From Campylobacterota bacterium (GTDB lineage: Bacteria > Campylobacterota > Campylobacteria > Campylobacterales > Sulfurovaceae): 24,818 nucleotides of DNA. The DNA is taken from the NCBI GenBank assembly GCA_034722955.1, contig JAYEOM010000011.1, positions 1 to 24,818 on the forward strand. Reading direction: 5' to 3'. The number at the start of each line of letters is the position of its first letter. The stretch's first letter is position 1. Shown here one piece after another: positions 74 through 12,707 of this stretch. Under the pieces are notes generated by a model, which saw only the letters and a program-made list of their open reading frames with translations, was not told the origin of the DNA and searched no databases. Position numbers and translations under genes: made by a program.

Positions 74-571
74 CTATATGAAACAATACTCATAATAAGC
101 ACAGCGTTTGCAGTGATTTTCAAATATAGGCTTAGGAGGATTTGATAAATCTATCAACGCCTCTATCTTCCCTAGCACCTCCAAAAGCTCCTTTTCATTC
201 TCATCATCTAGCTCTATATACTCTATCTTTTTACTCTGCCTCTTCTTCTCTATGTACTCAATCTTGCCCTTTTTGAGTACCCCTTTGGCTTTGAGCTTGT
301 AGAGGTAGAGTAGCACCTGCCACTTGACTGCTTCGGGGTCACTATCAGACTTTTTGACCTCTACCAAATAGTCACGGGTGAGTTTGTCTATCTTGACATT
401 GTCTATGCTTATCTCTGTCTTTTTGCCTTTTTCTTCGTTGATTTCGTGGAGTATCTTGCCTATGCGTACATCTTCACTATTCTCTTCGAGGTTGATGCGG
501 TTGGCATGGAGCCAACACTGGGTCTTGCAGTGGAAATAGTAGTTGATTAGTGTTCCTGTGACGGGGTTCAT
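74..571 (-). CDS. cas4: CRISPR-associated exonuclease Cas4
   Basis: VTGTLINYYFHC..Q.WL N-terminus, RecB-like ID...EVKKS motif, QVLLYLY, and C-terminal CxxCxYxxYC Fe-S cysteines; 165 aa, typical of I-B Cas4. Confidence 0.95.
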   Translation of the reverse strand: MNPVTGTLINYYFHCKTQCWLHANRINLEENSEDVRIGKILHEINEEKGKKTEISIDNVKIDKLTRDYLVEVKKSDSDPEAVKWQVLLYLYKLKAKGVLKKGKIEYIEKKRQSKKIEYIELDDENEKELLEVLGKIEALIDLSNPPKPIFENHCKRCAYYEYCFI

Positions 572-581
572 TGTTTTCCTT

Positions 582-1262
582 TTACTCTATAAACTGCAAA
601 CTATGTTTCATAGCATTTCTCAAAAAAACGACCATCTTCGCACTCTCATCAAACCCATCCAAATACTCCCTCTTCTCTTCGCTCAATATTAATGGCGGTA
701 TGAAGTCATTTTGTATCGCTTGAAAAGTCATCAAGAGTCTTCCTATCCGTCCATTGCCATCAGCAAAAGGGTGGATAGTCTCAAACGCAATATGAAACTG
801 AGAAATATCCTCGATATTCATACTACTGTTTTTGTATCTATAGAGTAGATTTTCTAAAGTTTGAGATATCTTATTGGGCGGCGTAAGTGTAACCAAACTA
901 CCTTGTATATGTCTCTCATCAGCTCTATATGCTCCTATAGGTTTGGGGACAAAAGAGGGCATCACCTGCAAAGCATCTTCAAACATAATCTCATGCAAGT
1001 CCTTGATAAAAGCCGTATCAAGCCCTCTTGTAGGATTGGCTGATTCGCGTATCACGACATCAAAAGCCTTGGCAAATCCCAAGATAACCAACTGCTCATG
1101 CATAGGTTTTTCTTTGGCTGTTATGCCATACTCCAAGAGCAATTTAGTCTCTCCAAAAGAGAGTGTAGTTCCCTCCATAGCATTAGAGTGATGCGTCACA
1201 GAGAGCCGCAACTCCCGAAACAGTCTCTCTTTTTGTTTTGTTGTTAGGGTGTTAAGTTTCAT
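582..1262 (-). CDS. Fic/DOC family protein (putative AMPylase with intramolecular inhibitory helix)
   Basis: Canonical HPFADGNGRIGR motif and an N-terminal (S/T)xxxE(G/N) motif, SNAMEG. Confidence 0.93.
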   Translation of the reverse strand: MKLNTLTTKQKERLFRELRLSVTHHSNAMEGTTLSFGETKLLLEYGITAKEKPMHEQLVILGFAKAFDVVIRESANPTRGLDTAFIKDLHEIMFEDALQVMPSFVPKPIGAYRADERHIQGSLVTLTPPNKISQTLENLLYRYKNSSMNIEDISQFHIAFETIHPFADGNGRIGRLLMTFQAIQNDFIPPLILSEEKREYLDGFDESAKMVVFLRNAMKHSLQFIE

Positions 1263-1277
1263 TTTTTGGATTTCCTT

Positions 1278-3908
1278 TTATAAAAACATTCCCACATTTT
1301 CACCCTTTAAAACAGAAGTATCTAAGCCATTTTTATAGGTATAAATAATTGAACCATTTTCAAAGCCTCCGTCATAAGCTAAAAACTCTCTATCTAAAAC
1401 CAAATAACCATACTCCTCTTTAGAATACACTCCTAATCTCTCTACTCCACTTCCTTGATATTTTGCCAAAGAGAAAGTATATTTAGAAATTTCTGAAGCT
1501 AGAGTTTGTAGTTTGATATTTTTATTGGTAAAATCTAACTCTTTGTTTTGAACAAGCTCTCCATACTCTTTCCAGACTCTCATAGCCTCATCACACCAAG
1601 GTACAAAAACAGAAACCGATTCCATATCAATAATCTTAATGTGTGATTCACTAAATCTAAGGTTTTTGATATGATCAATATAACTATCTAATCCCTCTAT
1701 AAATGGAGTATCGTTTGATTCTTTAATCTTTGCAATTACTTGGTTATAATAAATATCAAAATCTTTAGTCTCCAGAACATTTTTTTTCTCTTCTTTTCCC
1801 TCTATTGTTTCTATATATTCAGAGGATATTCCAAGTCTCTTATCGCCCTTATAAACAAACTTAGCTTTAGGATTTTCCATCTCAAACAAAAAGAGTTTAT
1901 TTCCTGCTTTTGAAGAGTTGCGATTGATACGCCCTGCGAGTTGTTCATCACTATCTATAAGAGATTTTTCTTTAAATCCAATATCCATATCTATATCCAC
2001 ACCAGCTTCCACCACCTGTGTAGTCACTAGCAAAATATTTTTATCGTTATTCTCTTTTAAAAAATCAATAATCTCTCTTCTTCTTGGCTCTAATATCGTA
2101 CCACTCAAAATAAATATCTCATCAAAAAATATTTTATTTTTAGCTACTGCCTCTTGATAAAACTCATCTGCACCTTTTTTGGTAATGAACTCTATAATAG
2201 TTCTCACGACATTACTTTCATTACTCTCTAATTTTTGGTACGATTTACTCTCTTGCAATAATCTCTTATAAATATCTTTTGAATCTTTTATAGTTTTCTT
2301 TTCGGTAGATATATCAACTCGTCGTCCAAAATTTGGATTTGAAAAATACTCTTGTTTATTTGATACCAAAGGAATAAACTTACTATTTGGCTCATTTAAA
2401 ATATCGCCTATCTTTGGCAAAGTAGCACTCATAACAATAAATTTGATATTAAATTGCTCTGCAAAACTATCAAGTAGATAAACGATACTAGACCACAAAG
2501 AGGGGCTATAAGTCTGTATCTCATCTATTATTACTATAGAGTTAGCCAATCTATGAAAGATATAGTTATCATCTTTACTTACACCCGTGAGGATATTAAA
2601 AAACTTTACATGACTTAGCATCGTAATAGGATAATTCATAAATTGATTATCTAAAAAGTTTGTTTTATCATCTCCATAAATACCATCTTTCTCTATCTCA
2701 TTCTTATCATTATATTTTGCTTTTGAGTGAAGTTGTACTATCTCACTATTATCGAGATCTAAAACATCTTTTATAGCGTCATAGGTTTGTGTGATAAGTG
2801 TCGTAAATGGAAATACATAAAAGATTTTATTGATAGAACTATCCTCTTTTAAAATCTCAACTGCACTCATAAGAGATAAGTTTGTTTTTCCTGCACCTGT
2901 GGGGGCTTCAATATAAAAGAGATTTTTAGTTATATTGTCTTTTAGATTTTCTCTCACTTCCAAAAAGAGTTTATTTCTTAAGATATTGAGATTTTTATTT
3001 GATTTTTCTTCTAAATATTTAAAATCAATCTCTATAGTTTTAATATCCTTTAGAGCTTGATTAAAAGTCTTTTGTTTCTTGTCTTTATCAAATTTATCAA
3101 TATAAAACTCATTATAAACTTTATCATTAAACTCTTTATCTATCAATCCAAAATCTTTATACGCAAGTTCTTTTTGATTGCCATAATTCATAAATTGAGC
3201 TGTGGCGTAGTAGTCCGATATGATGAGGAGGGAGAAGAGGGATTTTGAGAGTAAAAATAGTGTATCTTTGTTCTCCTCAATATAATCATAAATATAAGAA
3301 AAAACCCTATTTTCATCTTTATGCACTTTAATCAAATTTATTTGAATATCAAAGAGATTTAAAAACTGTTCCAAATCATCAGAAAATTCAAATTCTGAAC
3401 TTTGATAAATAGAACCATGATGCTTTGAAATAAAATATCCAAAAAGATAAACCATACTTTCAATAATTTCTATCTCATCTTCATCCCACTTTTTAACATC
3501 AAGTTCTTCTAAAGAGTGATTGATAAAAAGATATGCACCTAATGGCGAATGATTACTACCCTCTGATAATTCAATATTTTTGAACTTCTCATTAGCCATT
3601 TTATCAACTTGAAAATTATCATTCATTTTTCCCATGTCATGCCAATAAACAGCTTTGGCAAATAGATATTTTACAAAATTACCAAACTCTGTTTTTTCTT
3701 TTACATCTTCCAATAAATCGACACTCTGAACAAAAAGTTTATCAAGATGATTTTCTAAGCCATTTTTATCTACTAGAAGTAAAAAATAGTCATAAACTAA
3801 ATCTATATGCTCCTTTAGGCTCTCTTTTTCATTTTCTCTTATATGTGCTTTATATTTATCATCTATATCACGCTTTATATCCAATTCGCTAAATTTTAAA
3901 AGAGACAT
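1278..3908 (-). CDS. cas3: CRISPR-associated HD nuclease/helicase Cas3
   Basis: N-terminal HD domain (HDMGK, HH, SDY), then SF2 helicase motifs APTGAGKT, IIDEIQ, MSAT, TQVVEAGVDID and QLAGRINR. Confidence 0.96.
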   Translation of the reverse strand: MSLLKFSELDIKRDIDDKYKAHIRENEKESLKEHIDLVYDYFLLLVDKNGLENHLDKLFVQSVDLLEDVKEKTEFGNFVKYLFAKAVYWHDMGKMNDNFQVDKMANEKFKNIELSEGSNHSPLGAYLFINHSLEELDVKKWDEDEIEIIESMVYLFGYFISKHHGSIYQSSEFEFSDDLEQFLNLFDIQINLIKVHKDENRVFSYIYDYIEENKDTLFLLSKSLFSLLIISDYYATAQFMNYGNQKELAYKDFGLIDKEFNDKVYNEFYIDKFDKDKKQKTFNQALKDIKTIEIDFKYLEEKSNKNLNILRNKLFLEVRENLKDNITKNLFYIEAPTGAGKTNLSLMSAVEILKEDSSINKIFYVFPFTTLITQTYDAIKDVLDLDNSEIVQLHSKAKYNDKNEIEKDGIYGDDKTNFLDNQFMNYPITMLSHVKFFNILTGVSKDDNYIFHRLANSIVIIDEIQTYSPSLWSSIVYLLDSFAEQFNIKFIVMSATLPKIGDILNEPNSKFIPLVSNKQEYFSNPNFGRRVDISTEKKTIKDSKDIYKRLLQESKSYQKLESNESNVVRTIIEFITKKGADEFYQEAVAKNKIFFDEIFILSGTILEPRRREIIDFLKENNDKNILLVTTQVVEAGVDIDMDIGFKEKSLIDSDEQLAGRINRNSSKAGNKLFLFEMENPKAKFVYKGDKRLGISSEYIETIEGKEEKKNVLETKDFDIYYNQVIAKIKESNDTPFIEGLDSYIDHIKNLRFSESHIKIIDMESVSVFVPWCDEAMRVWKEYGELVQNKELDFTNKNIKLQTLASEISKYTFSLAKYQGSGVERLGVYSKEEYGYLVLDREFLAYDGGFENGSIIYTYKNGLDTSVLKGENVGMFL

Positions 3909-4633
3909 ATCACACCCTCATCAGTCTCATAAAGATTTTGAAGTTCTTTAGTAGATTTAAACATATTATTAGTATATAAAAAGTCATAATATTTATACTG
4001 TTTTAACTTCTCATCAAAACCAATAGGTAATCTCTCAAATAGATAAAAATAGTTGGTAGTCCTCTCTTTGTATCCACTATTTTTAAGTACAAAATTTTCA
4101 TCTTTTTTTATTATCGTTTTTACTTCAAATTTCTCTTTTGATTCTATTTTTTCAAATTTAGTATGTTGATGGAAATTATCCCACCACAAAGAAAATTCAT
4201 TTTTGCCCATATATGGAGGATAAACAGCTCTATGATTTTTCAAATAATCAATCAACTTTTGATGTTCTTCATTCTCATCATCAAGTTCAAGATAAATTCT
4301 ATAAGCAGGATTGACAAGTGTCTGCTCTGTAATATTGGATATTGAACCATTTGTCGTATTGTTAAAAATGATAAACTCTTTTTTAAATATACCACCATTT
4401 TCACTACTTGGAGCAATGGCTAGTCTAATATCTTTAAGTTTATCATAATACTCTGGCATTTTAGACTTGTCTCTATTTTGATTATGTCCATCATACCCCA
4501 TAATGGCACCAAATATTCCTAAGAGATAAGGCTTATGAATGATATTGTATGATACAAAAATCTTATCATTAATATCAGGCTTTTTAAACATTCCAAACTC
4601 TGACTTAATTGTAAAACTAATTAGTTTTTTCAT
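3896..4633 (-). CDS. cas5: Type I-B Cas5
   Basis: FGMFKKPD...SY..IHKPYLLGIFGAIMG N-terminal motif and YMGKNEF; lies between cas7 and cas3. Confidence 0.92.
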   Translation of the reverse strand: MKKLISFTIKSEFGMFKKPDINDKIFVSYNIIHKPYLLGIFGAIMGYDGHNQNRDKSKMPEYYDKLKDIRLAIAPSSENGGIFKKEFIIFNNTTNGSISNITEQTLVNPAYRIYLELDDENEEHQKLIDYLKNHRAVYPPYMGKNEFSLWWDNFHQHTKFEKIESKEKFEVKTIIKKDENFVLKNSGYKERTTNYFYLFERLPIGFDEKLKQYKYYDFLYTNNMFKSTKELQNLYETDEGVICLF

Positions 4634-4634
4634 A

Positions 4635-5591
4635 TTAGTTCACTTCTACAACTTTTAATAAATCATAAATTTTTACTTTATCTTTTAGTGTATCACTATC
4701 ATTTATAACATTTAAAAGTTCTTCAATATAATAAAGTTCTATAGAATCAATTTCACTTTCATATTTAGTCAAATAAGTTATAAGATTTGTAATATCAAAA
4801 GAGTTATTACCCTCTTTATCTTTTTCAAACTTAATAAACTGTGTAAAACTAGGAAGTGTCAAAGTAGAAGTTTCATTGAGCGTTACATAGATAGAGAGTT
4901 CATTTTCAACTCCAGCTTTTGAATGAGAATCATAAAAAGTAGCAGAGTTATTAAAAGCATTTTTTAAGATAGATATATCATTATTTGATAGAGTTTTTAT
5001 ATCACTCACTGTATTTTTCCAACTTGATAAATTTTGAGGATTTACTGAAAAGTTATGAATATAATGGGCTTCTGTAGCTTTACTCATACTTCCTATCGCT
5101 GTAAATGGTGCTAAGATTTCATCTGTATAGACTCGTCCTTTTTTATATAAATCAGTTGCATGATTAATTTGTACATTTCCATGAATAGAGATATTATTTC
5201 CTTTTGCTCCATCAGGTGTAAAAGTTGCACCAAAAAGTCTTACATCAATAGCCTCTGTTAAATTTTTAAAAACACTCTCTTTATCACTTTTTTTAACATT
5301 TGAATTATCTTTTAATTTGGTATCAAAAAGTACCTCGTAACTTGTTTTCAAATCATCTGTTTCTATCTTATTGTGAAAGTGCTTAGTAAATAATACTTTT
5401 TCATCACTATAATTCTTTTTAATATAGTTTCTTACCAACCACTTAAAAGATTTATCAGTTGCATAAAAACTACCATCACTTTTAAGTCTTCTAGGAAGTC
5501 CAGAAAAATCTGCATTATAATTTGCATTAATTGCCTTAACTACCACACACCCATAAACTCTATTTTTAAATTCACTACTACTCATTTTCAT
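4635..5591 (-). CDS. cas7: Type I-B Cas7 (Csh2-like); true start is probably the ATG at 5585
   Basis: NRVYG...NANYNADFSG.P, ATDKSFKW.VR and DVRLFGATF motifs. The AGGAG RBS is better spaced to the second ATG. Confidence 0.92.
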   Translation of the reverse strand: MKMSSSEFKNRVYGCVVVKAINANYNADFSGLPRRLKSDGSFYATDKSFKWLVRNYIKKNYSDEKVLFTKHFHNKIETDDLKTSYEVLFDTKLKDNSNVKKSDKESVFKNLTEAIDVRLFGATFTPDGAKGNNISIHGNVQINHATDLYKKGRVYTDEILAPFTAIGSMSKATEAHYIHNFSVNPQNLSSWKNTVSDIKTLSNNDISILKNAFNNSATFYDSHSKAGVENELSIYVTLNETSTLTLPSFTQFIKFEKDKEGNNSFDITNLITYLTKYESEIDSIELYYIEELLNVINDSDTLKDKVKIYDLLKVVEVN

Positions 5592-6051
5592 TTTCTCCTA
5601 TGTTATTATTTTGATATTTAATTTGGTTGTCAGAAAAATATCCTGCGATCATATACTCTATTACATTGTCCATCTCTAAATTATCTTTATAGGTCATCAT
5701 CATACTCATAGCATTATCATATCTCCTATCAAATTTCAATTCATGAGCATATTTTTTATGAGTTTCCCACATATACTCTTTAAGTAATTTACTTGTTTGC
5801 CACTCTGTAAACCCTGAAAAGTCGGCATGTGATTTATTCTCATTTTTACCTTTTTTCTTGCTTATTAAGAATCTTGCTAATTGACCACATAAAAAAGCAT
5901 AGAGTTTATCATCATCTAAAATCATTTCAAGACCTCCGACAAACTCCTTTTTTAGTGTTTTTCCATCAGATTTAAATTCTAAACTATCTTGCCAACACCC
6001 CAAAGAATTTCCCATTTTCTTTTTAAGTTCTATAAATTCACCACTATCCAC
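5578..6051 (-). CDS. cas11: Putative internally translated Cas11b (157 aa) within cas8b copy 2
   Basis: In-frame GTG at 6051 preceded by AAAAGGAGGAGACAAAA (strong SD) just before the C-terminal helical domain. Internal Cas11 translation is known for I-B/I-C/I-D. Confidence 0.65.
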   Translation of the reverse strand: MDSGEFIELKKKMGNSLGCWQDSLEFKSDGKTLKKEFVGGLEMILDDDKLYAFLCGQLARFLISKKKGKNENKSHADFSGFTEWQTSKLLKEYMWETHKKYAHELKFDRRYDNAMSMMMTYKDNLEMDNVIEYMIAGYFSDNQIKYQNNNIGENENE

Positions 6052-7524
6052 TTTTGTCTCCTCCTTTTGATTTAAACTAAATAGTAAATTTAGCTTCTCT
6101 TTTATCTCATTTTCATAAATAGAATACCCATCTTTGTTGTTATTATCATGCCTGATATTATCAATAATAATATCAAGTAACATCTCTCTAAAATCTATCA
6201 ATCTTAAAGCACTTTGATGTGATTTATAGATAAAGTCATAAAAATTTTGTCGATACTTAAGAAGATAATTTTTAAGAATGTTGTTTGAATTACCCGAGTC
6301 TATTTTCCAATAGGTTATTTTTAGATCCTTATAGTCACTAAAATAGTTATATTGTAGTTTTTTATCAAAAATAAGCTCATTAATAATTTTTTCAAATTGA
6401 AAGACACTTAGTTTTTTATCATAAAAACCACCTAAATTAAAACTATTTTTTATTTGTAAAAAGTTTTCTATCTTTAGAGTTGTCATATATTCAAAATTTT
6501 CGATATAATCTAAATCTGTAATCTGTAATTTCCAACCATTATCACTTTTTGAATAATAATTTAAAAGATAAAAGTTTTTTAAATCTTTAGGATTTGTATA
6601 ATAGATAGATTTAATTATCTCTCTATAACTCTTCTTCTTCTCATTATCTTTTAAAATACTTTTTTGTTCTCCAAAAAGATTTTTATTATCAATAAATAGA
6701 GGAAAAGGTTTTGTAAGTTGTTGATTATCAGTCATAACCTTAAATTTATGAAGCTTTAAAGTACAAGTTTTACAAACATGATTAGTGAGTTTTAAAGGCA
6801 TAGTACCTTTCATACCTAAATCATCTCCTAATGTAGATAAGACATAAGGTAGAGAAAGCTCATCTGAATATTCTTCACAAAGAGAACAGTTTCCTTTATG
6901 AAACCCTGCTTTTTTTGTATCTAAAAATGCTCTTTTTTCTACAAATTTTTCATAAAAAGACTTCACAATATTTAAGCCTACATCAATATAAACCCGTATC
7001 TCTATAGAAACTTCTTTTTTGTTCTTTTTTTGATTTTCATATTTTTGTTTTAATTCAGTGACAATACTTTTTTTCCCAAGCAATAGTTTTTCAAGATTTT
7101 CTTCAAGATATTTTTGAATTTCTATTAATTTATTTTTATCTTCATCATCATCTAAATAAATACTAGCACTTTCATACTGAACTTTAATTCTGTTTGCTTT
7201 AGCATTTAGATTTGTGTTAACTGTTTCATTCTCATCTAATTTATTATAAAAAACTTTTACTGTCAAAATATATGGAGAGCTTCCTCCTAAACCTTTATTT
7301 TTATCAAGATATTTATTGTGCATACCTTTTTGATAGTAAGTCATATATTTGAGAATCTCTTTTAATTCACTATCTAAATTATCAATATCCAGTAAATCTT
7401 TGCAAACCATATCATTTTGAATTTTAATAAAGTAATGAAGATAGGCTTTACTTACTTCATTTTGAATAAAATAATCCTCTATCTTTGGATTTGCATCCAT
7501 AAACTCCACAATCTCTTTAATCAT
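5578..7524 (-). CDS. cas8b: Type I-B Cas8b large subunit (copy 2, adjacent to cas7), with Zn-finger cysteines
   Basis: Directly upstream of cas7; CSLC...CKTC; C-terminal helical domain with FLCGQLARFLIS and NAMSMMMTY motifs shared with copy 1. Confidence 0.82.
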   Translation of the reverse strand: MIKEIVEFMDANPKIEDYFIQNEVSKAYLHYFIKIQNDMVCKDLLDIDNLDSELKEILKYMTYYQKGMHNKYLDKNKGLGGSSPYILTVKVFYNKLDENETVNTNLNAKANRIKVQYESASIYLDDDEDKNKLIEIQKYLEENLEKLLLGKKSIVTELKQKYENQKKNKKEVSIEIRVYIDVGLNIVKSFYEKFVEKRAFLDTKKAGFHKGNCSLCEEYSDELSLPYVLSTLGDDLGMKGTMPLKLTNHVCKTCTLKLHKFKVMTDNQQLTKPFPLFIDNKNLFGEQKSILKDNEKKKSYREIIKSIYYTNPKDLKNFYLLNYYSKSDNGWKLQITDLDYIENFEYMTTLKIENFLQIKNSFNLGGFYDKKLSVFQFEKIINELIFDKKLQYNYFSDYKDLKITYWKIDSGNSNNILKNYLLKYRQNFYDFIYKSHQSALRLIDFREMLLDIIIDNIRHDNNNKDGYSIYENEIKEKLNLLFSLNQKEETKVDSGEFIELKKKMGNSLGCWQDSLEFKSDGKTLKKEFVGGLEMILDDDKLYAFLCGQLARFLISKKKGKNENKSHADFSGFTEWQTSKLLKEYMWETHKKYAHELKFDRRYDNAMSMMMTYKDNLEMDNVIEYMIAGYFSDNQIKYQNNNIGENENE

Positions 7525-7577
7525 TTTACTAATCCTTTATTTTTTACTAAAATTGCCAAATAAACAAAAAACTGCAT
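7521..7577 (-). CDS. Putative 18-aa leader peptide MQFFVYLAILVKNKGLVK coupled to cas8b copy 2
   Basis: GAGGAG SD 5 nt before the ATG at 7577; its TGA overlaps the cas8b ATG (ATGA). Confidence 0.4.
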   Translation of the reverse strand: MQFFVYLAILVKNKGLVK

Positions 7578-7726
7578 ATAATCTCCTCATATAATTTCTT
7601 CTAAGAGTAAGCCATCTTTTTTCAAAAGTTTTTCAACTTTAAAGCAAAGAGATACTACTCTGTTAGAATTGAAGTACTAACTTCAAATCTTTCCTAAAAC
7701 GATTATGACACACTAAACCTTATAAG

Positions 7727-7744
7727 TCACTAGTATAAGAAAGT
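7727..7744. promoter_or_regulatory. TCA PAM plus crRNA-like-RNA target overlapping a candidate minus-strand -10 box (TATACT, 7737-7732) of the cas8b2 operon
   Basis: + strand reads TCA|CTAGTATAAGAAAGT, 14/15 identical to the sequence following the repeat at 7872. The reverse complement contains TATACT. Confidence 0.65.
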
Positions 7745-7803
7745 AAATAAAAATAGAGAAATTTTAGAAAAAAATAGAAATACTAATCAAATATTTTGTT
7801 TTT

Positions 7804-7814
7804 TATACTAAAAT
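7804..7814 (+). promoter_or_regulatory. Candidate -10 box (TATACT/TAAAAT) for the crRNA-like RNA
   Basis: TATACT at 7804-7809 and TAAAAT at 7809-7814, after an A/T-tract upstream region and just before the 5' arm of the predicted RNA. Confidence 0.4.
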
Positions 7815-7816
7815 CA

Positions 7817-7909
7817 CGATTAGCAACAATATCTTTATCTTTTTGAACCGATACATAAGGTGTATTTAAATCTAGTATAAGATAGTTTTAGAATTGTTGC
7901 TACTTTTTT
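7817..7909 (+). ncRNA. Candidate crRNA-like regulatory RNA (CreR/CreA-like): solitary repeat + pseudo-spacer + U-tract; ends approximate
   Basis: Repeat at 7842-7871, spacer from 7872, flanking 10-bp inverted repeat (TAGCAACAAT 7821-7830 / ATTGTTGCTA 7893-7902) and T6 at 7904-7909. Confidence 0.65.
7842..7871 (+). CRISPR. Solitary type I-B-like CRISPR repeat TTTGAACCGATACATAAGGTGTATTTAAAT
   Basis: 30 nt with an ATACA-TAAGG-TGTAT hairpin and an 8-nt 3' handle ATTTAAAT. Resembles, from recollection, the I-B repeat family of the form NTTGAAC...ACAT...TGTATTTAAAT. Single copy, not an array. Confidence 0.75.
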
Positions 7910-7917
7910 ACCTACTC

Positions 7918-8718
7918 CTACCTACCAATACAACATTTCTTATACTTCTTACCACTGCCACAAGGACAAGGGTCATTTCTGCCCACTTTTGAAAAAGGTT
8001 CTATATTGTCTTGAAATACATTAAGCTTAGTTTTCTCTTTTCGTAAACCTAAATGTATTTCTATACTTTCTATATCTCCACACATTAGCTCATCTACATC
8101 TTTAGTTTTATAAGTTTTACGAATCAAATCAATATGTCTATCTTTTCCGAGGGTAACAAGAGATGTGATAGCAAAAGAGAGAGCGACAGGATGGGTCTTT
8201 TCATTTTCTAGATAACGAATCATCATAGCTTCTATACGATTAGAACTATTTGGCTCTGTTTCTAACATATACTCTATACCATCAAAGATACCTATAAGTC
8301 CATATAATTCTGGATTTTCAAATATATATTTCTCAAAATAATCCAATCCATCTATACCCATATTTGTGACATATTGGACAAAAGCTTCAAGAAAATATTC
8401 ATTTCCATCATTCTCTTTCTCTTTCTATTTCTTCTCTAAAATAATATCAATAGACTCCACAGCTTTTATTTTACCTAGAACATTGACAGCATGTATCGTA
8501 GCAAAAAAGAATTTTTCTATTAATTTATCATCATCTATCAAGTTATATGCTTCATATGTAGCCAATTCAATAAGCTCATCTGTATCATCTTTTGTAAATT
8601 TGAATTTTTCATAAATCTTTAAATTAACTTTTCCTCGCAAAGACTCTTTGCCCAACTCAAACAGTGCTTGTATCTTTGTTGAATACTTTTTTGTAAAATC
8701 TCCGTATACTCTGTTCAT
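7918..8718 (-). pseudogene. Helical (DUF1186-like) + SEC-C motif protein interrupted by one in-frame TAG at 8425-8427
   Basis: ORFs 8425-8718 and 7918-8361 are in the same frame, reading ...[31 protein letters not shown]...; C-terminus [20 protein letters not shown]. The DUF1186 label is tentative. Confidence 0.75.
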
Positions 8719-9398
8719 TTTGTTTCTCCTTTTGATTTTAGTTTTTTGGTTAAGAAATAGACTATCATTTGAGAAAACTCATAATATTTACCATTATCAT
8801 CTATCTCTTCATACTTGCTAACATCCTGCTTGATGGTCTGATTTGTCCAGCCTCGTTTATTTAGATTTTGAATTAACCTTTGATAAGATTGCTTTCGGTT
8901 TCTTTTCAACATTGAATTATTGAGATTTAAAATAGTGTTTAACTCTTTATCTATTCTAGAATCCACAGAAGAGATGTCTCCTAATTTAGAATATTTTATA
9001 TATTGCTCTATAGCACCTAAAAGATTGATACTATTTAATTCATCTTCTCCTTTAAAGCTATCACAATACTGCTCTTTTTTTCGTTTGCCCTCGCCTCCAT
9101 TACAAGCAATAAAAAGATTTTGGTAATCTATTTGCACATCTCTATTTTTTGTTTGTGGTTTAAAATGTTCTATTTTACTACTATTGCAATCTATGCGACT
9201 CATACAATAACAACAGATATAACCTTGCTCTTCTAAAAGCTGTTTTCTTAGATTATATTTTTCATCTTCGCTACAACCTTCTTTTGTTTTATCTTTAAAA
9301 TCTTCATAAATATTACTTTTTCTCAAATCACTATGAGTAATAGAGCTTCTATACTCTGTAAGACTTTTGGGTTCTGTTCCTTTATTTATCTGTTTCAA
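8715..9398 (-). CDS. HNH endonuclease, TIGR02646 / Septu-retron PtuB-like
   Basis: LLEEQGYICCYCMSRI, IEHFKPQ, DYQNLFIAC...CDSFKG and LNLN..L...R motifs; directly downstream of an ABC ATPase. Confidence 0.85.
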   Translation of the reverse strand: MKQINKGTEPKSLTEYRSSITHSDLRKSNIYEDFKDKTKEGCSEDEKYNLRKQLLEEQGYICCYCMSRIDCNSSKIEHFKPQTKNRDVQIDYQNLFIACNGGEGKRKKEQYCDSFKGEDELNSINLLGAIEQYIKYSKLGDISSVDSRIDKELNTILNLNNSMLKRNRKQSYQRLIQNLNKRGWTNQTIKQDVSKYEEIDDNGKYYEFSQMIVYFLTKKLKSKGETK

Positions 9399-9401
9399 GT
9401 A

Positions 9402-10328
9402 TTAATCCCTCCAAAAAGCTATATCATTTCTCATTGCCAAAACTTCACTATCATTTTCACCTATAACCTTTTCAAGAGTATCAATACATATTTCAGCTTC
9501 ATCATATTTGTCATCATTCAAAAGCTCTTGACACTCTTTAATTTTTTTGGAGACACTCTCTTCTCTTGTATATTGTATTCCCATAACTTCTTCAAGAACC
9601 CACTCTATATCACGACCATAAGCCAATACATCATTTATAACCTCGACCTCGTCATTTTCATTCATAGCAAGAAGTCTAATCCACTCATTTTTTGCACTCC
9701 CAATAATATGAGGCGAATGAGTAGCTATAATGATTTGACAATTATTCTCTTTGGCAAAAGTTTCATAGAGTTTCAGTATTTTATTTTGCCATGATGGATG
9801 CAGAGATAGCTCTGGCTCATCTATAAGAACAATTTGGTTTCTAATATCTTTAAAATAGAGGTACAACACTTTAGAGAGAAGAGTTTTCTCTCCTGTAGAT
9901 ATATCATCTATAGAGAGCTTGTCACCTCTTTTATTTCTAAAAAATAAATTTCCCTCTCCATCTCTACTATCAAATACTATTTTCATATCAAAACCATCTA
10001 ATATACTATTGATATAATTACGAACTCTTTTGTATATTTTACTCGCAACTATATCCTCTTCATAAACCATTTTTTCTATATATTTGGGCATAAATTCTTT
10101 GATGTCGTTCAAACTATATTGTGCAGGGAAGTAGATAGAATTATGGGCAATTTCACTCTTTATAAACTCTAAAATAGTTGTTTTTCCTGTACCATTGACT
10201 CCTGCTATGATAATAAGCGGTAGAGGATTGCTATTTTTATCAGAAAATGAGATTTTAAAATCTTGAAACAATTTATACTCTACGATATGTAAGTCTTGTA
10301 ATTTTTCTCCTCTATCTACATCAAACAT
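9402..10328 (-). CDS. ABC/AAA ATPase, Septu/retron PtuA-like
   Basis: Walker A GVNGTGKT, signature ISTGEK, Walker B VLIDEPELSLHPSWQ, H-loop ATHSPH and C-terminal YGRD..WVLEEVMG. No adjacent permease; paired with the HNH gene. Confidence 0.85.
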   Translation of the reverse strand: MFDVDRGEKLQDLHIVEYKLFQDFKISFSDKNSNPLPLIIIAGVNGTGKTTILEFIKSEIAHNSIYFPAQYSLNDIKEFMPKYIEKMVYEEDIVASKIYKRVRNYINSILDGFDMKIVFDSRDGEGNLFFRNKRGDKLSIDDISTGEKTLLSKVLYLYFKDIRNQIVLIDEPELSLHPSWQNKILKLYETFAKENNCQIIIATHSPHIIGSAKNEWIRLLAMNENDEVEVINDVLAYGRDIEWVLEEVMGIQYTREESVSKKIKECQELLNDDKYDEAEICIDTLEKVIGENDSEVLAMRNDIAFWRD

Positions 10329-10713
10329 TATCTACTTCCCTCTTCATATAAAAGATATTCTCACTCAAAGCCCCCACCAAAAAACTATCCATATTTTTAG
10401 ATAGAGATAGTTTATCACTCTCATCATACGCCATAATCAAACTCATAGCATTGTTGAACTTCACATATCCCAAGCTAATGGCGTGTTTATATTTGAAGTA
10501 TTCACTCTCTATGACTCTCTTTAGCTTAGTTGAACTGTTGGCTCTCAAATAAGACTCTAGCAAATCACCATTTTTTTGATGAGCTTTGCTCTGCGATATG
10601 AGATATTTTGCCATCTGACCAGAGATATAAAAAAACTCTTCTGCTGTTAGATTATCATAATTTGCATCCTCTATTCTCTCTATCATACTCTCTTGCATCT
10701 TTTTTATATTCAT
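10321..10713 (-). CDS. cas11: Putative internally translated Cas11b (130 aa) within cas8b copy 1
   Basis: In-frame ATG at 10713 (MNIKKMQ...) preceded by AAAAGGGAGAAGAGACT. Confidence 0.6.
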   Translation of the reverse strand: MNIKKMQESMIERIEDANYDNLTAEEFFYISGQMAKYLISQSKAHQKNGDLLESYLRANSSTKLKRVIESEYFKYKHAISLGYVKFNNAMSLIMAYDESDKLSLSKNMDSFLVGALSENIFYMKREVDNV

Positions 10714-11988
10714 AGTCTCTTCTCCCTTTTTGCGTAATGAAAATTTTAGATTTAAGCTCAGTCCAGCTGAAAGAAATCTCCCTCTAATGATATGTTCTAT
10801 AGCCAAATGTGTTGCATACTTCTCTATGACTTTATAAAATGCTCTATCATCATACTTTTTGAAATACCCACTCATCGCATCGCGTGTAGTGTAGATAAAT
10901 GAAGCGAAATTATTGTCAAGTTTTTTATACACTTCTCCATAATAGTTATTTTTGAGTTGTCTATTATAGAGTACCTCATCTATTTTATCCTCTAAAATAT
11001 TGAGATATTCTATAGTCTCATCTTCTATCAGCACTTTACCCTTTTTGAGTAGCAGATGGTTTTTTATAGTGATAGGCTCTTTTAATTTATCTATTTTAAT
11101 AGGCAAATAATCAAAATCTATAACCAAATCTTTTTCTCTAAAGTCCCTATTGATAAAAAACTCACTACCTAGGGGTGTTTTGTCCATATATTTTTGAGTC
11201 TTTAGCCAATCAAAAAACTTTTTTTCCATAAGAACATCTTCTTTGAGTATCAGAAATGGTGTAGATGTTTTTCTTGTTAAATTCTTACAAAATGGTTTTT
11301 TATCATTTAGCACTATATTTGAATCAGGTAAACCATAAATAAGATTTTCTATGTATTTTGAATAAATATTTTTATTAAAAAGTTTAAGTGAAAAATAGAT
11401 AGCACTTTCTTCTTTATATCTATCCAATGGCACATCAAAAAATATTTTAATATAATTGGTAATTTCATTATCTTTTGCAAGATTCATAATTGTTTCCATA
11501 TTATTTTTTAAAAATTTATATTTTTTAGCAACATCACGCTTTCTATCACAAGTATTTAATTTCTTATACTCTTTTACAATTTTTATTTCATGTTTATCTT
11601 TGAAAGAAAAATTCAATAATTTATTATATAGATTTTTTTTAATATGTTCTAAATTCTCTAAATTAAATTGCTCGACTTTCATATATAAAGATAAATAATT
11701 ATTATTATGAATAATCTTTTTGGGTGCATCAAGAACTTTTCTATTGCTTATCACATCACTATAATAGTCCCTCTCCTTAAACCACTCATAGGCTTTACTA
11801 TTTAATCCACCGTTGATATCACTAAAAATTAGTTCTCTATTTTTGCGTTTGACTATAAAAGCTTGGGAGGTCTTATCACTATTGACTTTGATATACATCC
11901 CCTCTTTTAGCTCATAAGAACCCAAAATTAGCATATCACCTCTCTGTTCATACTCTCTTTTGAATACTTCTAATAAATCATAAATCAT
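10321..11988 (-). CDS. cas8b: Type I-B Cas8b/Csh1-like large subunit (copy 1, adjacent to cas6)
   Basis: Csh1-like N-terminus (MIYDLLEVFK...ILGSYEL.EG.YI, RDYYS, KKIIHNNNYLS, LNDKKPF) and C-terminal SGQMAKYLISQSK and NNAMSLIMAY; ATGA overlap with cas6. Confidence 0.82.
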   Translation of the reverse strand: MIYDLLEVFKREYEQRGDMLILGSYELKEGMYIKVNSDKTSQAFIVKRKNRELIFSDINGGLNSKAYEWFKERDYYSDVISNRKVLDAPKKIIHNNNYLSLYMKVEQFNLENLEHIKKNLYNKLLNFSFKDKHEIKIVKEYKKLNTCDRKRDVAKKYKFLKNNMETIMNLAKDNEITNYIKIFFDVPLDRYKEESAIYFSLKLFNKNIYSKYIENLIYGLPDSNIVLNDKKPFCKNLTRKTSTPFLILKEDVLMEKKFFDWLKTQKYMDKTPLGSEFFINRDFREKDLVIDFDYLPIKIDKLKEPITIKNHLLLKKGKVLIEDETIEYLNILEDKIDEVLYNRQLKNNYYGEVYKKLDNNFASFIYTTRDAMSGYFKKYDDRAFYKVIEKYATHLAIEHIIRGRFLSAGLSLNLKFSLRKKGEETMNIKKMQESMIERIEDANYDNLTAEEFFYISGQMAKYLISQSKAHQKNGDLLESYLRANSSTKLKRVIESEYFKYKHAISLGYVKFNNAMSLIMAYDESDKLSLSKNMDSFLVGALSENIFYMKREVDNV

Positions 11989-12707
11989 CTCATCCCCCTA
12001 CCCAAACAAAACCCACCACCAAAGCTATTCTTCTCTCCAAGCCCACAAGCTAGGGCTACAAAAGCCAACTTTTGGCTCACTTCATCTTCGTTGGGAACTA
12101 TCTTGAACTTATTGCCATAAAACTTGACAGGTTTGCCATCACTATGTGTTTTGTTGGTTTGTATAGTCTGTAGGCGGTTGTTTTTGAGTTCAAATAGTTG
12201 GATGAAGTTTTGTATGCTTTTGATTGGTTCATTGTAAAACTCTTGGTATTTTTTCTCTAGGTTGTCTTGAAGTTGTTTATGTAGGAGCATCAAGTCATCT
12301 TCTTTGACCCAGTATCTGTCTTTGGCTACGGTGACGATGACAGGGGTGGCAGAGTAGAGTTCTGAGATGAAAAATTGGTTGATAGTTTTTTTGTGTGTCT
12401 CTACTATGAGTAGGTGGGGGTTGTCTATGTTGGCTCTTAGCGTAGTGGAGAGTCTATCTATGAAGCTCTTCTCTAGTGAGCGGATGACAAACTTATAGGT
12501 GTTGCCTTTGAGATATATCTTGTCGCGTTCTATGGGAAGTAGTCCACCAAACAGATAGTGTTTAAATCCTGTAGTACTATGAAGTTTTTTCAGCTCCTCG
12601 TCTTGAGCCATAGAGTAGCTGATATAGCGTGATAGTATGTCAAAGCTTTGCGTGAAGCTAATATCCTCTTTTATGTATGCTGTGCATGTCAGTTCAAAAT
12701 ATTTCAA
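11985..12707 (-). CDS. cas6: CRISPR-associated endoribonuclease Cas6
   Basis: C-terminal G-rich loop GLGEKNSFGGGF; H...FKHYLF motif; TTG start with AAGGAG RBS. Confidence 0.95.
   Translation of the reverse strand: MKYFELTCTAYIKEDISFTQSFDILSRYISYSMAQDEELKKLHSTTGFKHYLFGGLLPIERDKIYLKGNTYKFVIRSLEKSFIDRLSTTLRANIDNPHLLIVETHKKTINQFFISELYSATPVIVTVAKDRYWVKEDDLMLLHKQLQDNLEKKYQEFYNEPIKSIQNFIQLFELKNNRLQTIQTNKTHSDGKPVKFYGNKFKIVPNEDEVSQKLAFVALACGLGEKNSFGGGFCLGRGMR

Follow-up and report, generated by a model that had tools for sequence, protein, structure and literature searches.

Organisation of the cas locus

The window, that is, the complete 24,818-nt stretch of DNA analysed here, is the entire contig C11 of a 2.51-Mb Campylobacterota assembly comprising 140 contigs. 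All of its relevant genes are on the minus strand. The gene for the presumed processing enzyme, cas6 (11985..12707; NCBIfam cas_cas6, 3e-20; PADLOC Cas6b, 2e-72), is followed by genes for a full-length Cas8b of 555 aa (10321-11988), Septu PtuA (9402-10328) and PtuB (8715-9398), a 97-aa open reading frame and a SEC-C-motif protein (7918-8361). A 393-nt intergenic region separates the SEC-C gene from cas8b2 (5578..7524; PADLOC Cas8b model, 9e-34), which encodes the second Cas8b, of 648 aa. This is the first gene of the presumed regulated operon, cas8b2-cas7-cas5-cas3-fic-cas4 (74-7524). Pfam and NCBIfam matches identify cas7, cas5, cas3 and cas4 (74-571); the Fic gene (582-1262) is recognised by the PADLOC models PDC-S04 and SoFic. 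The open reading frames of cas6, cas8b2, cas7, cas5 and cas3 are all intact. On contig C71, the cas1 reading frame is missing the N-terminal half and is joined to HipA domains; the CRISPR system may therefore be partly decayed.

The 393-nt intergenic region houses a creR-like unit. A 4.1-kb block carrying a second cas8b, Septu and SEC-C has been inserted right beside this unit, and alleles without the block exist. Defence cargo (Septu, a second Cas8b and Fic) is found inserted around the unit.

A solitary repeat and its pseudo-spacer

The unit begins with a lone 30-nt pseudo-repeat, psiR (7842..7871, plus strand), whose position the first-pass annotation had given correctly and whose kinship with the genome's own CRISPR array can now be established. 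A piece of type I-B array, consisting of two 30-nt repeat copies and one 37-nt spacer, is present at the end of contig C71, directly downstream of cas2 and in the same direction. psiR matches the repeat of this array at 26 of 30 positions. The differences are confined to position 1 and to loop positions 15-17; the 3' 13 nt are identical, including the 8-nt handle ATTTAAAT (7864-7871). The predicted fold contains the repeat hairpin (7850-7856/7860-7866, plus strand), and the Cas6 cut in psiR is predicted between 7863 and 7864. When both strands of the 2.51-Mb genome are scored against the array repeat, the tally is two sites at 30/30 (the array), one at 26/30 (psiR), five at 21/30 and fourteen at 20/30; psiR is the sole off-array site above 21/30 genome-wide. 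Like CreR/CreA elements, it derives from the cognate repeat and keeps the handle nucleotides.

The window contains one repeat copy at ≤3 mismatches, and the element is thus not a canonical CRISPR array. Downstream of the pseudo-spacer there is nothing resembling another repeat, and the 30 nt that come next already run into the end of the SEC-C gene. In relatives, the arrays are downstream of cas2 and run in the direction of the cas genes, with repeats of the form CTTGAACC...GTATTGAAAT or ...GTATTGAAAC. psiR runs antisense to the cas genes and occupies the opposite end of the operon; a stray array end is thereby excluded.

The pseudo-spacer that follows psiR is 38 nt long in all, close to the 37 nt of the only assembled array spacer. 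Its first 15 nt form the seed, CTAGTATAAGATAGT (7872..7886, plus strand), which matches a target; the rest (7887..7909) comprises a linker, a 3' helix arm and a U-tract. The target, or protospacer, is CTAGTATAAGAAAGT (7730..7744, plus strand), 142 nt upstream of the seed. A TCA triplet (7727..7729), the candidate PAM, precedes the protospacer on its 5' side, as read on the strand that has the sequence of the pseudo-spacer. Seed, target and triplet all lie where the first-pass annotation had placed them, and the match pattern that it had described is reproduced: positions 1-11 and 13-15 are identical, position 12 differs (14/15 overall), and the match falls to 7/22 beyond position 15. A partial seed match within the same cas locus is a characteristic of CreR/CreA elements.

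This match exceeds what chance would give. With the pseudo-spacer held fixed against a 393-nt Markov region of the same composition, on either strand, a seed match of 14/15 or better has P = 0.00055 (20,000 trials), and a run of at least 11 from position 1 has P = 0.00135 under the same null. Of 8001 actual 15-mers in the window, 15 have a partner of at least 14/15 within 400 nt. The 15-nt pair does not appear among the 20 largest repeat families listed by a repeat search of the window. The 11-nt seed is present three further times in the genome, on contigs C42, C100 and C109 (flanks ACT, TTC and ACT, respectively); these copies lie within open reading frames and have other flanks, and they were therefore treated as chance occurrences.

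Candidate PAM

The first-pass annotation had assumed TCA and had proposed deriving the PAM from array spacers; a related system was used for this. Malaciobacter canalis has a Cas8b with 64% identity to cas8b2, and the 42 spacers of its I-B array were searched against 184 genomes of its family. Nine sites were found at ≥31 of 33-36 positions, representing seven distinct spacers. TCA is the 5' flank for four of the seven (spacers 12, 24, 26 and 27). The other flanks are TCT for spacer 37 (in two genomes), CCA for spacer 10 and AAA for spacer 7, the last being a match to the organism's own chromosome; a weaker site (27/34) is flanked by TAT. As TCA is the commonest flank in this related system, the assumed PAM is reasonable. 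The part of the derivation that concerned the window's own genome yielded nothing: its single assembled spacer has no exact match in viral contigs. Queries from the arrays of relatives gave no match in a phage collection and, in a plasmid collection, matched only the repeats of other arrays.

Homologous units in cas8b2 relatives

Cas8b2 is scarce, occurring in 4 of 250 genomes of the family when the window's own genome is counted. A wider set of relatives comprises 11 cas8b2 loci in species-level genomes and 27 in metagenome contigs. Related cas8b2 records are assigned to Sulfurimonas, Malaciobacter and Arcobacteraceae. In most relatives, cas6 or a gene of ~170 aa abuts cas8b2, leaving no spacer region. 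A creR-like unit is present in 2 of the 38 related loci, both metagenomic (L033 and L023), and in none of the 11 species-level loci. An apparent unit in a further locus, L010, was rejected because the match sits inside cas6.

In L033 and L023, the unit is located between cas6 and cas8b2 and is antisense, as in the window. The encoded Cas8b proteins are, respectively, 86% (over residues 1-79) and 74% identical to that of the window. TCA is unchanged in both loci and all 13 pairing positions match in both. In L033, position 6 has changed in pseudo-spacer and target alike; in L023, G>C at position 4 and G>A at position 10 are found in both pseudo-spacer and target, and the only mismatches between seed and target are at positions 6 and 12. 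Two pairs of the psiR hairpin are also maintained by compensatory changes in these loci. The covariation of seed and target that the first-pass annotation had proposed to look for is seen at positions 4 and 10 of L023. A conserved element whose seed and target change together is a further characteristic of the CreR/CreA kind.

An unbiased scan looked for any 15-mer that comes after a handle-like octamer and matches a site 45-260 nt upstream at 13/13 pairing positions. Across the window and the 38 related loci (379,543 nt), three of its four hits are the units of the window, L023 and L033, and the fourth is a duplicated array spacer; no hit arises in 20 shuffled copies.

Assembled contigs (which are not expression data) provide two further alleles, expressed here as joints between window positions. 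Contigs of run X5, from another study, have joints 7901 to 12006 and 7475 to 7784; these fit a further relative in which the unit is directly between cas6 and cas8b2. A contig from the sister sample X2 has the joint 7524 to 12001. Here the start of cas8b2 is identical and cas6 adjoins it, with neither the unit nor the inserted block; the unit is therefore dispensable.

One-repeat units in Arcobacteraceae

I-B genomes of Arcobacteraceae have solitary repeats ~9 kb from their arrays and on the opposite strand. Six of these were examined (L063, L064, L065, L068, L070 and L075). In all except L065, the repeat is just after the cas6 stop codon, the pseudo-spacer is unrelated to that of the window, and a target matching at 13/13 pairing positions is located 99-133 nt upstream; these targets are flanked by TCA in three loci and CCA in two. 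For L065, no target was found within 2.5 kb at a threshold of ≥12/13. Targets were recorded only at ≥12/13, so the 13/13 figure is conditional on this filter; what can be taken from it is that five of the six lone repeats have such a site beside them.

Together with the window, L033 and L023, these loci make a set of eight units. Mismatches occur at position 6 in five of the eight and at position 12 in seven, and nowhere else in the seed; past position 15, agreement does not exceed background (6-9 of 21-22). The candidate PAM is TCA in six units and CCA in two. According to the CreA paper, positions 6 and 12 take no part in pairing (PMC8501985). The mismatch positions agree with the first-pass annotation, which had described a position-12 mismatch as tolerated. 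With at least four unrelated seeds, the eight units are an unusually clean natural data set. Thirteen pairing positions, two flipped-out misses and a stop at nucleotide 15 give sequence-level support for the 5+1 geometry of Cascade; the stop likewise supports 15 nt as a preferred length for binding without cutting.

RNA anatomy and the leader:pseudo-spacer helix

Conservation points to a putative creR -10 box, TATACT (7804..7809, plus strand); the corresponding sequence is TATAGT in L033 and TATACT in L023, and it is always 11 nt upstream of a short complementary segment. In the minimum free energy fold, this segment, TAGCAACAAT (7821..7830, plus strand), is the 5' arm of a helix between leader and pseudo-spacer. 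Its partner is the 3' arm ATTGTTGCTA (7893-7902, plus strand), at pseudo-spacer positions 22-31. The 98-nt fold has an energy of -19.8 kcal/mol (z = -3.15). Nine helix pairs are invariant in the three-sequence consensus of the window, L033 and L023. A U6 tract (7904-7909, plus strand) follows the helix in the window only; it is in a window-specific insertion and is absent from L033 and L023.

Equivalent helices of 8-15 bp, with other sequences, are found in L063, L064, L068, L070 and L075. The leader:pseudo-spacer helix is consequently present in all eight units, at 8-15 bp and involving pseudo-spacer positions of about 16-31. Its sequence is wholly replaced between groups (AGCAACAA, AGTAAAATTACT, TACAACAAATCT and TTACAACATTACTTT) and its complementarity is maintained. 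A role as minus-strand terminator for cas6 was considered and rejected, since no U-tract follows the helix on the minus strand in any unit. In Rfam, the sole match (Plastid-psbA-3) scored 18.9 bits, below its gathering score of 48.4, and was dismissed.

Candidate promoters of cas8b2

The target is ~200 nt upstream of the cas8b2 ATG, in the sole intergenic region upstream of this gene, and it overlaps or adjoins three candidate -10 boxes on the minus strand (7702..7766). These are TAAAAT (7766->7761), TATACT (7737->7732) and TGtCATAAT (7710->7702). The second is inside the target and is the box which the first-pass annotation had pointed out in the reverse complement, directed toward cas8b2. 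The -35 element of the third, GTGACT (7730->7725), overlaps the PAM; the box itself aligns with TGcTATTAT in L033 and cATTATAAT in L023, where 12 more nucleotides separate it from the target. The intergenic region is 24% G+C and contains 5 promoter-like sites against 2.4 expected. Such boxes are common at this composition, so all three are treated as candidates for the cas8b2 promoter.

Whichever promoter is used, Cascade at 7727-7744 would pair with the non-template strand of the cas8b2 unit; it would also obstruct read-through from cas6. A possible cas6 remnant in the last 18 nt before the cas8b2 ATG was dropped as a candidate, because a shared ribosome-binding region explains the similarity equally well.

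Interpretation and alternative explanations

The unit is probably a gene for a one-repeat, CreR-type (crRNA-like) regulatory RNA of type I-B, which guides Cascade to repress the effector operon. This interpretation is supported by comparative evidence from sequence: the repeat, the seed match, TCA, the covariation, the hairpin and the helix. The first-pass annotation had read the element as a repressor like CreA/CreR, and every computable check (array repeat, PAM of a relative, covariation, mismatch positions) is favourable to that reading.

The steps that we infer run from transcription, Cas6 cutting and Cascade loading through promoter choice to repression and its relief. A short plus-strand transcript of ~7816-7909 would begin just before the helix formed by the leader (7821-7830) and the pseudo-spacer (7893-7902). 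Cas6 would cut the pseudo-repeat 8 nt before the pseudo-spacer, and the product, AUUUAAAU followed by about 31-38 nt, would be loaded into Cascade (Cas8b2-Cas7-Cas5). Cascade would then recognise TCA at 7727-7729 and pair with the minus strand at positions 1-5, 7-11 and 13-15 of 7730-7744. The resulting 15-nt partial R-loop would allow binding without recruitment of Cas3. This R-loop would cover the cas8b2 promoter or lie immediately before it, where it would also meet polymerases reading through from cas6, and so would reduce transcription of cas8b2-cas7-cas5-cas3-fic-cas4. Repression should be relieved once crRNAs titrate Cascade or something blocks it; such relief by anti-CRISPRs or crRNA competition is extrapolated from published CreR work.

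Three other explanations dispense with an RNA guide. The element might be a functionless relic, i.e. a decayed array end or a recombination scar in which the 15-nt direct repeat is a duplication. The locus is indeed a mosaic, with the 4.1-kb block beside the element and block-less alleles known. A relic is nevertheless highly improbable: the element runs opposite to both the cas genes and the array, whereas the arrays of relatives are downstream of cas2 and in the sense direction; it is conserved in L023 and L033 with compensated changes; the same design recurs with unrelated seeds in five other loci; and the similarity sets in precisely where repeat gives way to spacer and stops at position 15. 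Solitary repeats acting as RNA anti-CRISPRs have been described (PMC10651486), and a Racr-like decoy RNA could soak up Cas6 or other Cas proteins without any guiding. Such a decoy needs neither a PAM-flanked seed match nor the seed-target covariation seen here, and the element is within a host cas locus rather than a mobile element; this explanation is very unlikely too. Direct repeats in promoter regions are often operators, and the two 15-mers could in principle be sites for a DNA-binding protein with the repeat incidental. However, each of three unrelated seed sequences across the loci would require a different protein, the 15-mer copy beside psiR has no TCA, and mismatches confined to positions 6 and 12 fit the geometry of Cascade and not an operator. 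We give almost no weight to this explanation.

Alternatively, the RNA guide could be real and have as its main task the restraint of something besides, or other than, the Cas effectors, as in an addiction module of the CreTA type. The candidates would be a toxic RNA or peptide encoded in the intergenic region, an 18-aa open reading frame (7578->7522) with an AGGAG ribosome-binding site, or Fic. The Haloarcula hispanica element between cas6 and cas8 controls the toxin gene creT as well as cas8, and the window has a near-consensus plus-strand promoter (TTGCCA-18-TATAAT, 7553-7582, 11/12), a motif AGGAGATTATATG in common with L033, and the Fic matches to PDC-S04 and SoFic. Against this, the distance from the presumed creR start to psiR is only ~26 nt, and between target and psiR (7745-7841) there is no ATG or GTG and no mini-ORF. 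A CreT-like mini-ORF with rare codons plus a hairpin was not seen. L023 lacks a conserved counterpart of the 18-aa open reading frame, and the peptide encoded in L033 is different; Fic is missing at the cas3-cas4 junction of the relative G030. Hence a CreTA-type module is considered unlikely.

A repressor of the effector operon remains the preferred reading, and the helix suggests how such a single-repeat guide might work. By defining both ends of the RNA, it could do the work of the absent second repeat. It might also sequester the guide's 3' half and so restrict pairing to the 15-nt seed, which would be a safeguard against self-cleavage. The leader:spacer helix is therefore a testable idea for both the ends and the harmlessness of a single-repeat guide. 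The presumed repressed operon carries the Fic gene and abuts a Septu system and a second Cas8b, which is the basis for the idea of a toxin backup: loss of Cascade activity, e.g. through an anti-CRISPR, might switch on a toxin as a backup defence if this idea is true. A joint reading, in which the units constitute, among the one-repeat CreR elements, a 'helix-closed' subclass of their own in the I-B systems of Campylobacterota, with the helix roles and the toxin backup both included, is speculative and on balance doubtful.

For annotation purposes, the long cas6-cas8 intergenic region in these genomes should be regarded as a putative regulatory RNA gene and not as empty DNA.

Comparison with known systems

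The unit belongs to the CreA/CreR kind that has already been described, and the mechanism was published in 2021-2023. The CreTA system of H. hispanica is reportedly the work of Li et al. 2021, Cheng et al. 2021 and Liu et al. 2023. In this I-B system, the one-repeat creA is situated between cas6 and cas8 and has a T-rich terminator at its end. Its pairing involves positions 1-5 and 7-11; creT and cas8 are both repressed by it, whereas cas6 is not (10.1101/2023.03.10.532045; PMC8501985). The window's unit resembles this CreA, as published, in subtype and in its cas6-cas8 intergenic location. Both have a single degenerate repeat which retains 5'-handle nucleotides, seed pairing at 1-5 and 7-11 with positions 6 and 12 unpaired, and a target beside a PAM (a candidate PAM here), located at the cas8 promoter in H. 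hispanica and near the candidate cas8b2 promoters here. In both, cas6 is outside the repressed unit (presumed in the window). The two also differ in several respects. The host here is a bacterium (Campylobacterota) and not a haloarchaeon; the candidate PAM is TCA rather than TTC, and the seed is 15 nt rather than 11 nt. No recognisable creT toxin is present here, and the gene is antisense to the cas genes. Finally, a conserved leader:pseudo-spacer helix is found in place of the simple T-rich terminator reported for H. hispanica.

The CreR of the Salmonella enterica I-E system matches, over 15 nt, a site that has a PAM beside it and is located ~140 bp upstream of casA (10.1101/2023.03.10.532045). 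Like the window's putative RNA, it is described as a stand-alone Cas regulator with no known toxin; its 15-nt match is flanked by a PAM, that of the window by the candidate PAM. Spacing can be compared as follows: here the pseudo-spacer is 142 nt from the target, which is ~200 nt upstream of cas8b2, and in S. enterica the target is ~140 bp upstream of the first cascade gene. Unlike the unit in the window, the S. enterica element is of subtype I-E and has two pseudo-repeats (a mini-array), and its 15 matching nucleotides are consecutive, while position 12 is mismatched here.

Elements of this kind are predicted to be widespread, and the surroundings of cas6 in I-B loci are among the places named (Shmakov et al. 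2023, PMC10120712). The elements of that survey share with the window's unit a repeat-like sequence in a long intergenic region around I-B cas6; their spacers partly match promoter regions with a cognate PAM, to which the candidate promoters and the candidate PAM would correspond here. In contrast to the unit here, the I-B examples quoted there are upstream of cas6 and target the cas6 promoter, and most of the elements are two-repeat mini-arrays. The word 'Campylobacter' does not occur in the main text of that survey, supplementary lists aside. Similarly, Arcobacter and Sulfurimonas have no occurrences in the main text of CreR-type papers, whose supplementary lists may include such loci, and a search for literature linking Arcobacter or Sulfurimonas with CreR, CreA, crRNA-like RNAs or mini-arrays found none. 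If the interpretation from sequence is correct, the units would extend RNA-guided self-repression of Cas effectors, as known from CreR and CreA, to type I-B systems of Campylobacterota.

A CreR with a single psiR and a rho-independent terminator is known from type V-A (10.1101/2024.10.29.618823). As in the window, the V-A element, according to its description, consists of one pseudo-repeat and a pseudo-spacer, and it is directed at an effector promoter, as is proposed for the window's unit; its terminator can be compared with the putative U-tract end found here. The V-A effector is Cas12a, however, and its terminator is a local hairpin after the spacer and not a helix of leader on spacer. Main-text accounts of CreA, CreR and mini-arrays, figures and supplements aside, make no mention of a leader:spacer helix; within those accounts, the conserved leader:pseudo-spacer helix is the one feature of these units which sets them apart from published CreA and CreR elements.

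Gene content of the cas locus

A block of about 4.1 kb (7903-12005, minus strand) separates cas6 from the creR unit, the predicted CreR-like RNA gene of this locus. It contains a second, full-length Cas8b of 555 aa (10321-11988, minus strand), together with the Septu genes PtuA/PtuB, an open reading frame of 97 aa and a protein with a SEC-C motif, all on the same strand. As a result, the window locus has two different Cas8b genes against a single cas7-cas5-cas3 set. The block is absent from L023 and L033, two metagenomic loci with a homologous creR unit between cas6 and cas8b2, and from the contigs of sequence runs X5 and X2. At its N-terminus (MIYDLLEV), the 555-aa Cas8b is similar to the N-termini of Cas8b-like open reading frames in L063 and L064, two Arcobacteraceae loci.

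An 18-aa open reading frame (MQFFVYLAILVKNKGLVK; 7522-7578, minus strand) with a strong AGGAG ribosome-binding site precedes cas8b2 and ends in a stop codon that overlaps the ATG of that gene. The motif AGGAGATTATATG in this region is common to the window and L033, where a different 27-aa peptide comes after it; L023 does not contain the motif. The plus strand of the same stretch carries a near-consensus promoter-like sequence, TTGCCA-18-TATAAT (7553-7582).

Between cas3 and cas4 lies an inserted Fic-domain gene (582-1262, minus strand; PADLOC PDC-S04 8e-40, SoFic 2e-22). The operon that is predicted to be repressed by the CreR-like RNA includes this gene.

Other CRISPR components of the genome

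On contig C71 of the same genome (L066), a 700-aa open reading frame (589-2691, minus strand) combines the N- and C-terminal kinase domains of HipA with the C-terminal half of Cas1 (positions 148-282 of the 283 in the Pfam model) and lies directly upstream of cas2 and the array. It is a fusion of HipA and Cas1 or else a cas1 gene interrupted by hipA. Contigs C43 and C109 carry a second CRISPR repeat type (GTTTCAATCCCC...); a second CRISPR-Cas system therefore probably coexists with the I-B system.

Comparison with related loci

A solitary repeat in L065 (G353:C2:414400-416900; 1228-1257, plus strand) matches the repeat of Malaciobacter canalis at 27/30 positions. No cas6 adjoins it, and nothing within 2.5 kb matches its seed; it may represent a crRNA-like RNA that acts on a distant target. 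In M. canalis itself, array spacer 7 agrees at 33/33 positions with a site on the chromosome of the same organism (coordinates of the observation: L048, G250:C1:728182-728228, and L012, 19589-19621). The flank of this match is AAA, which differs from the inferred PAM. The site lies within a short unit that has a TATAAT box and a hairpin resembling a terminator, and is kept at 32/33 in another genome (L060).

Downstream of cas6, the intergenic region of many related I-B loci contains a conserved palindrome, CCTAGG (or CCCAGG)...CCTCTCCTGTAAA...TACAGTGA...CCTAGG. It is located at 1040-1095 in L063 and 1055-1112 in L064, and also occurs upstream of the gene after cas6 in L012, L016/L044, L031 and L041/L042. 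Some of the I-B loci that have the element carry a creR-like unit, and others lack one.
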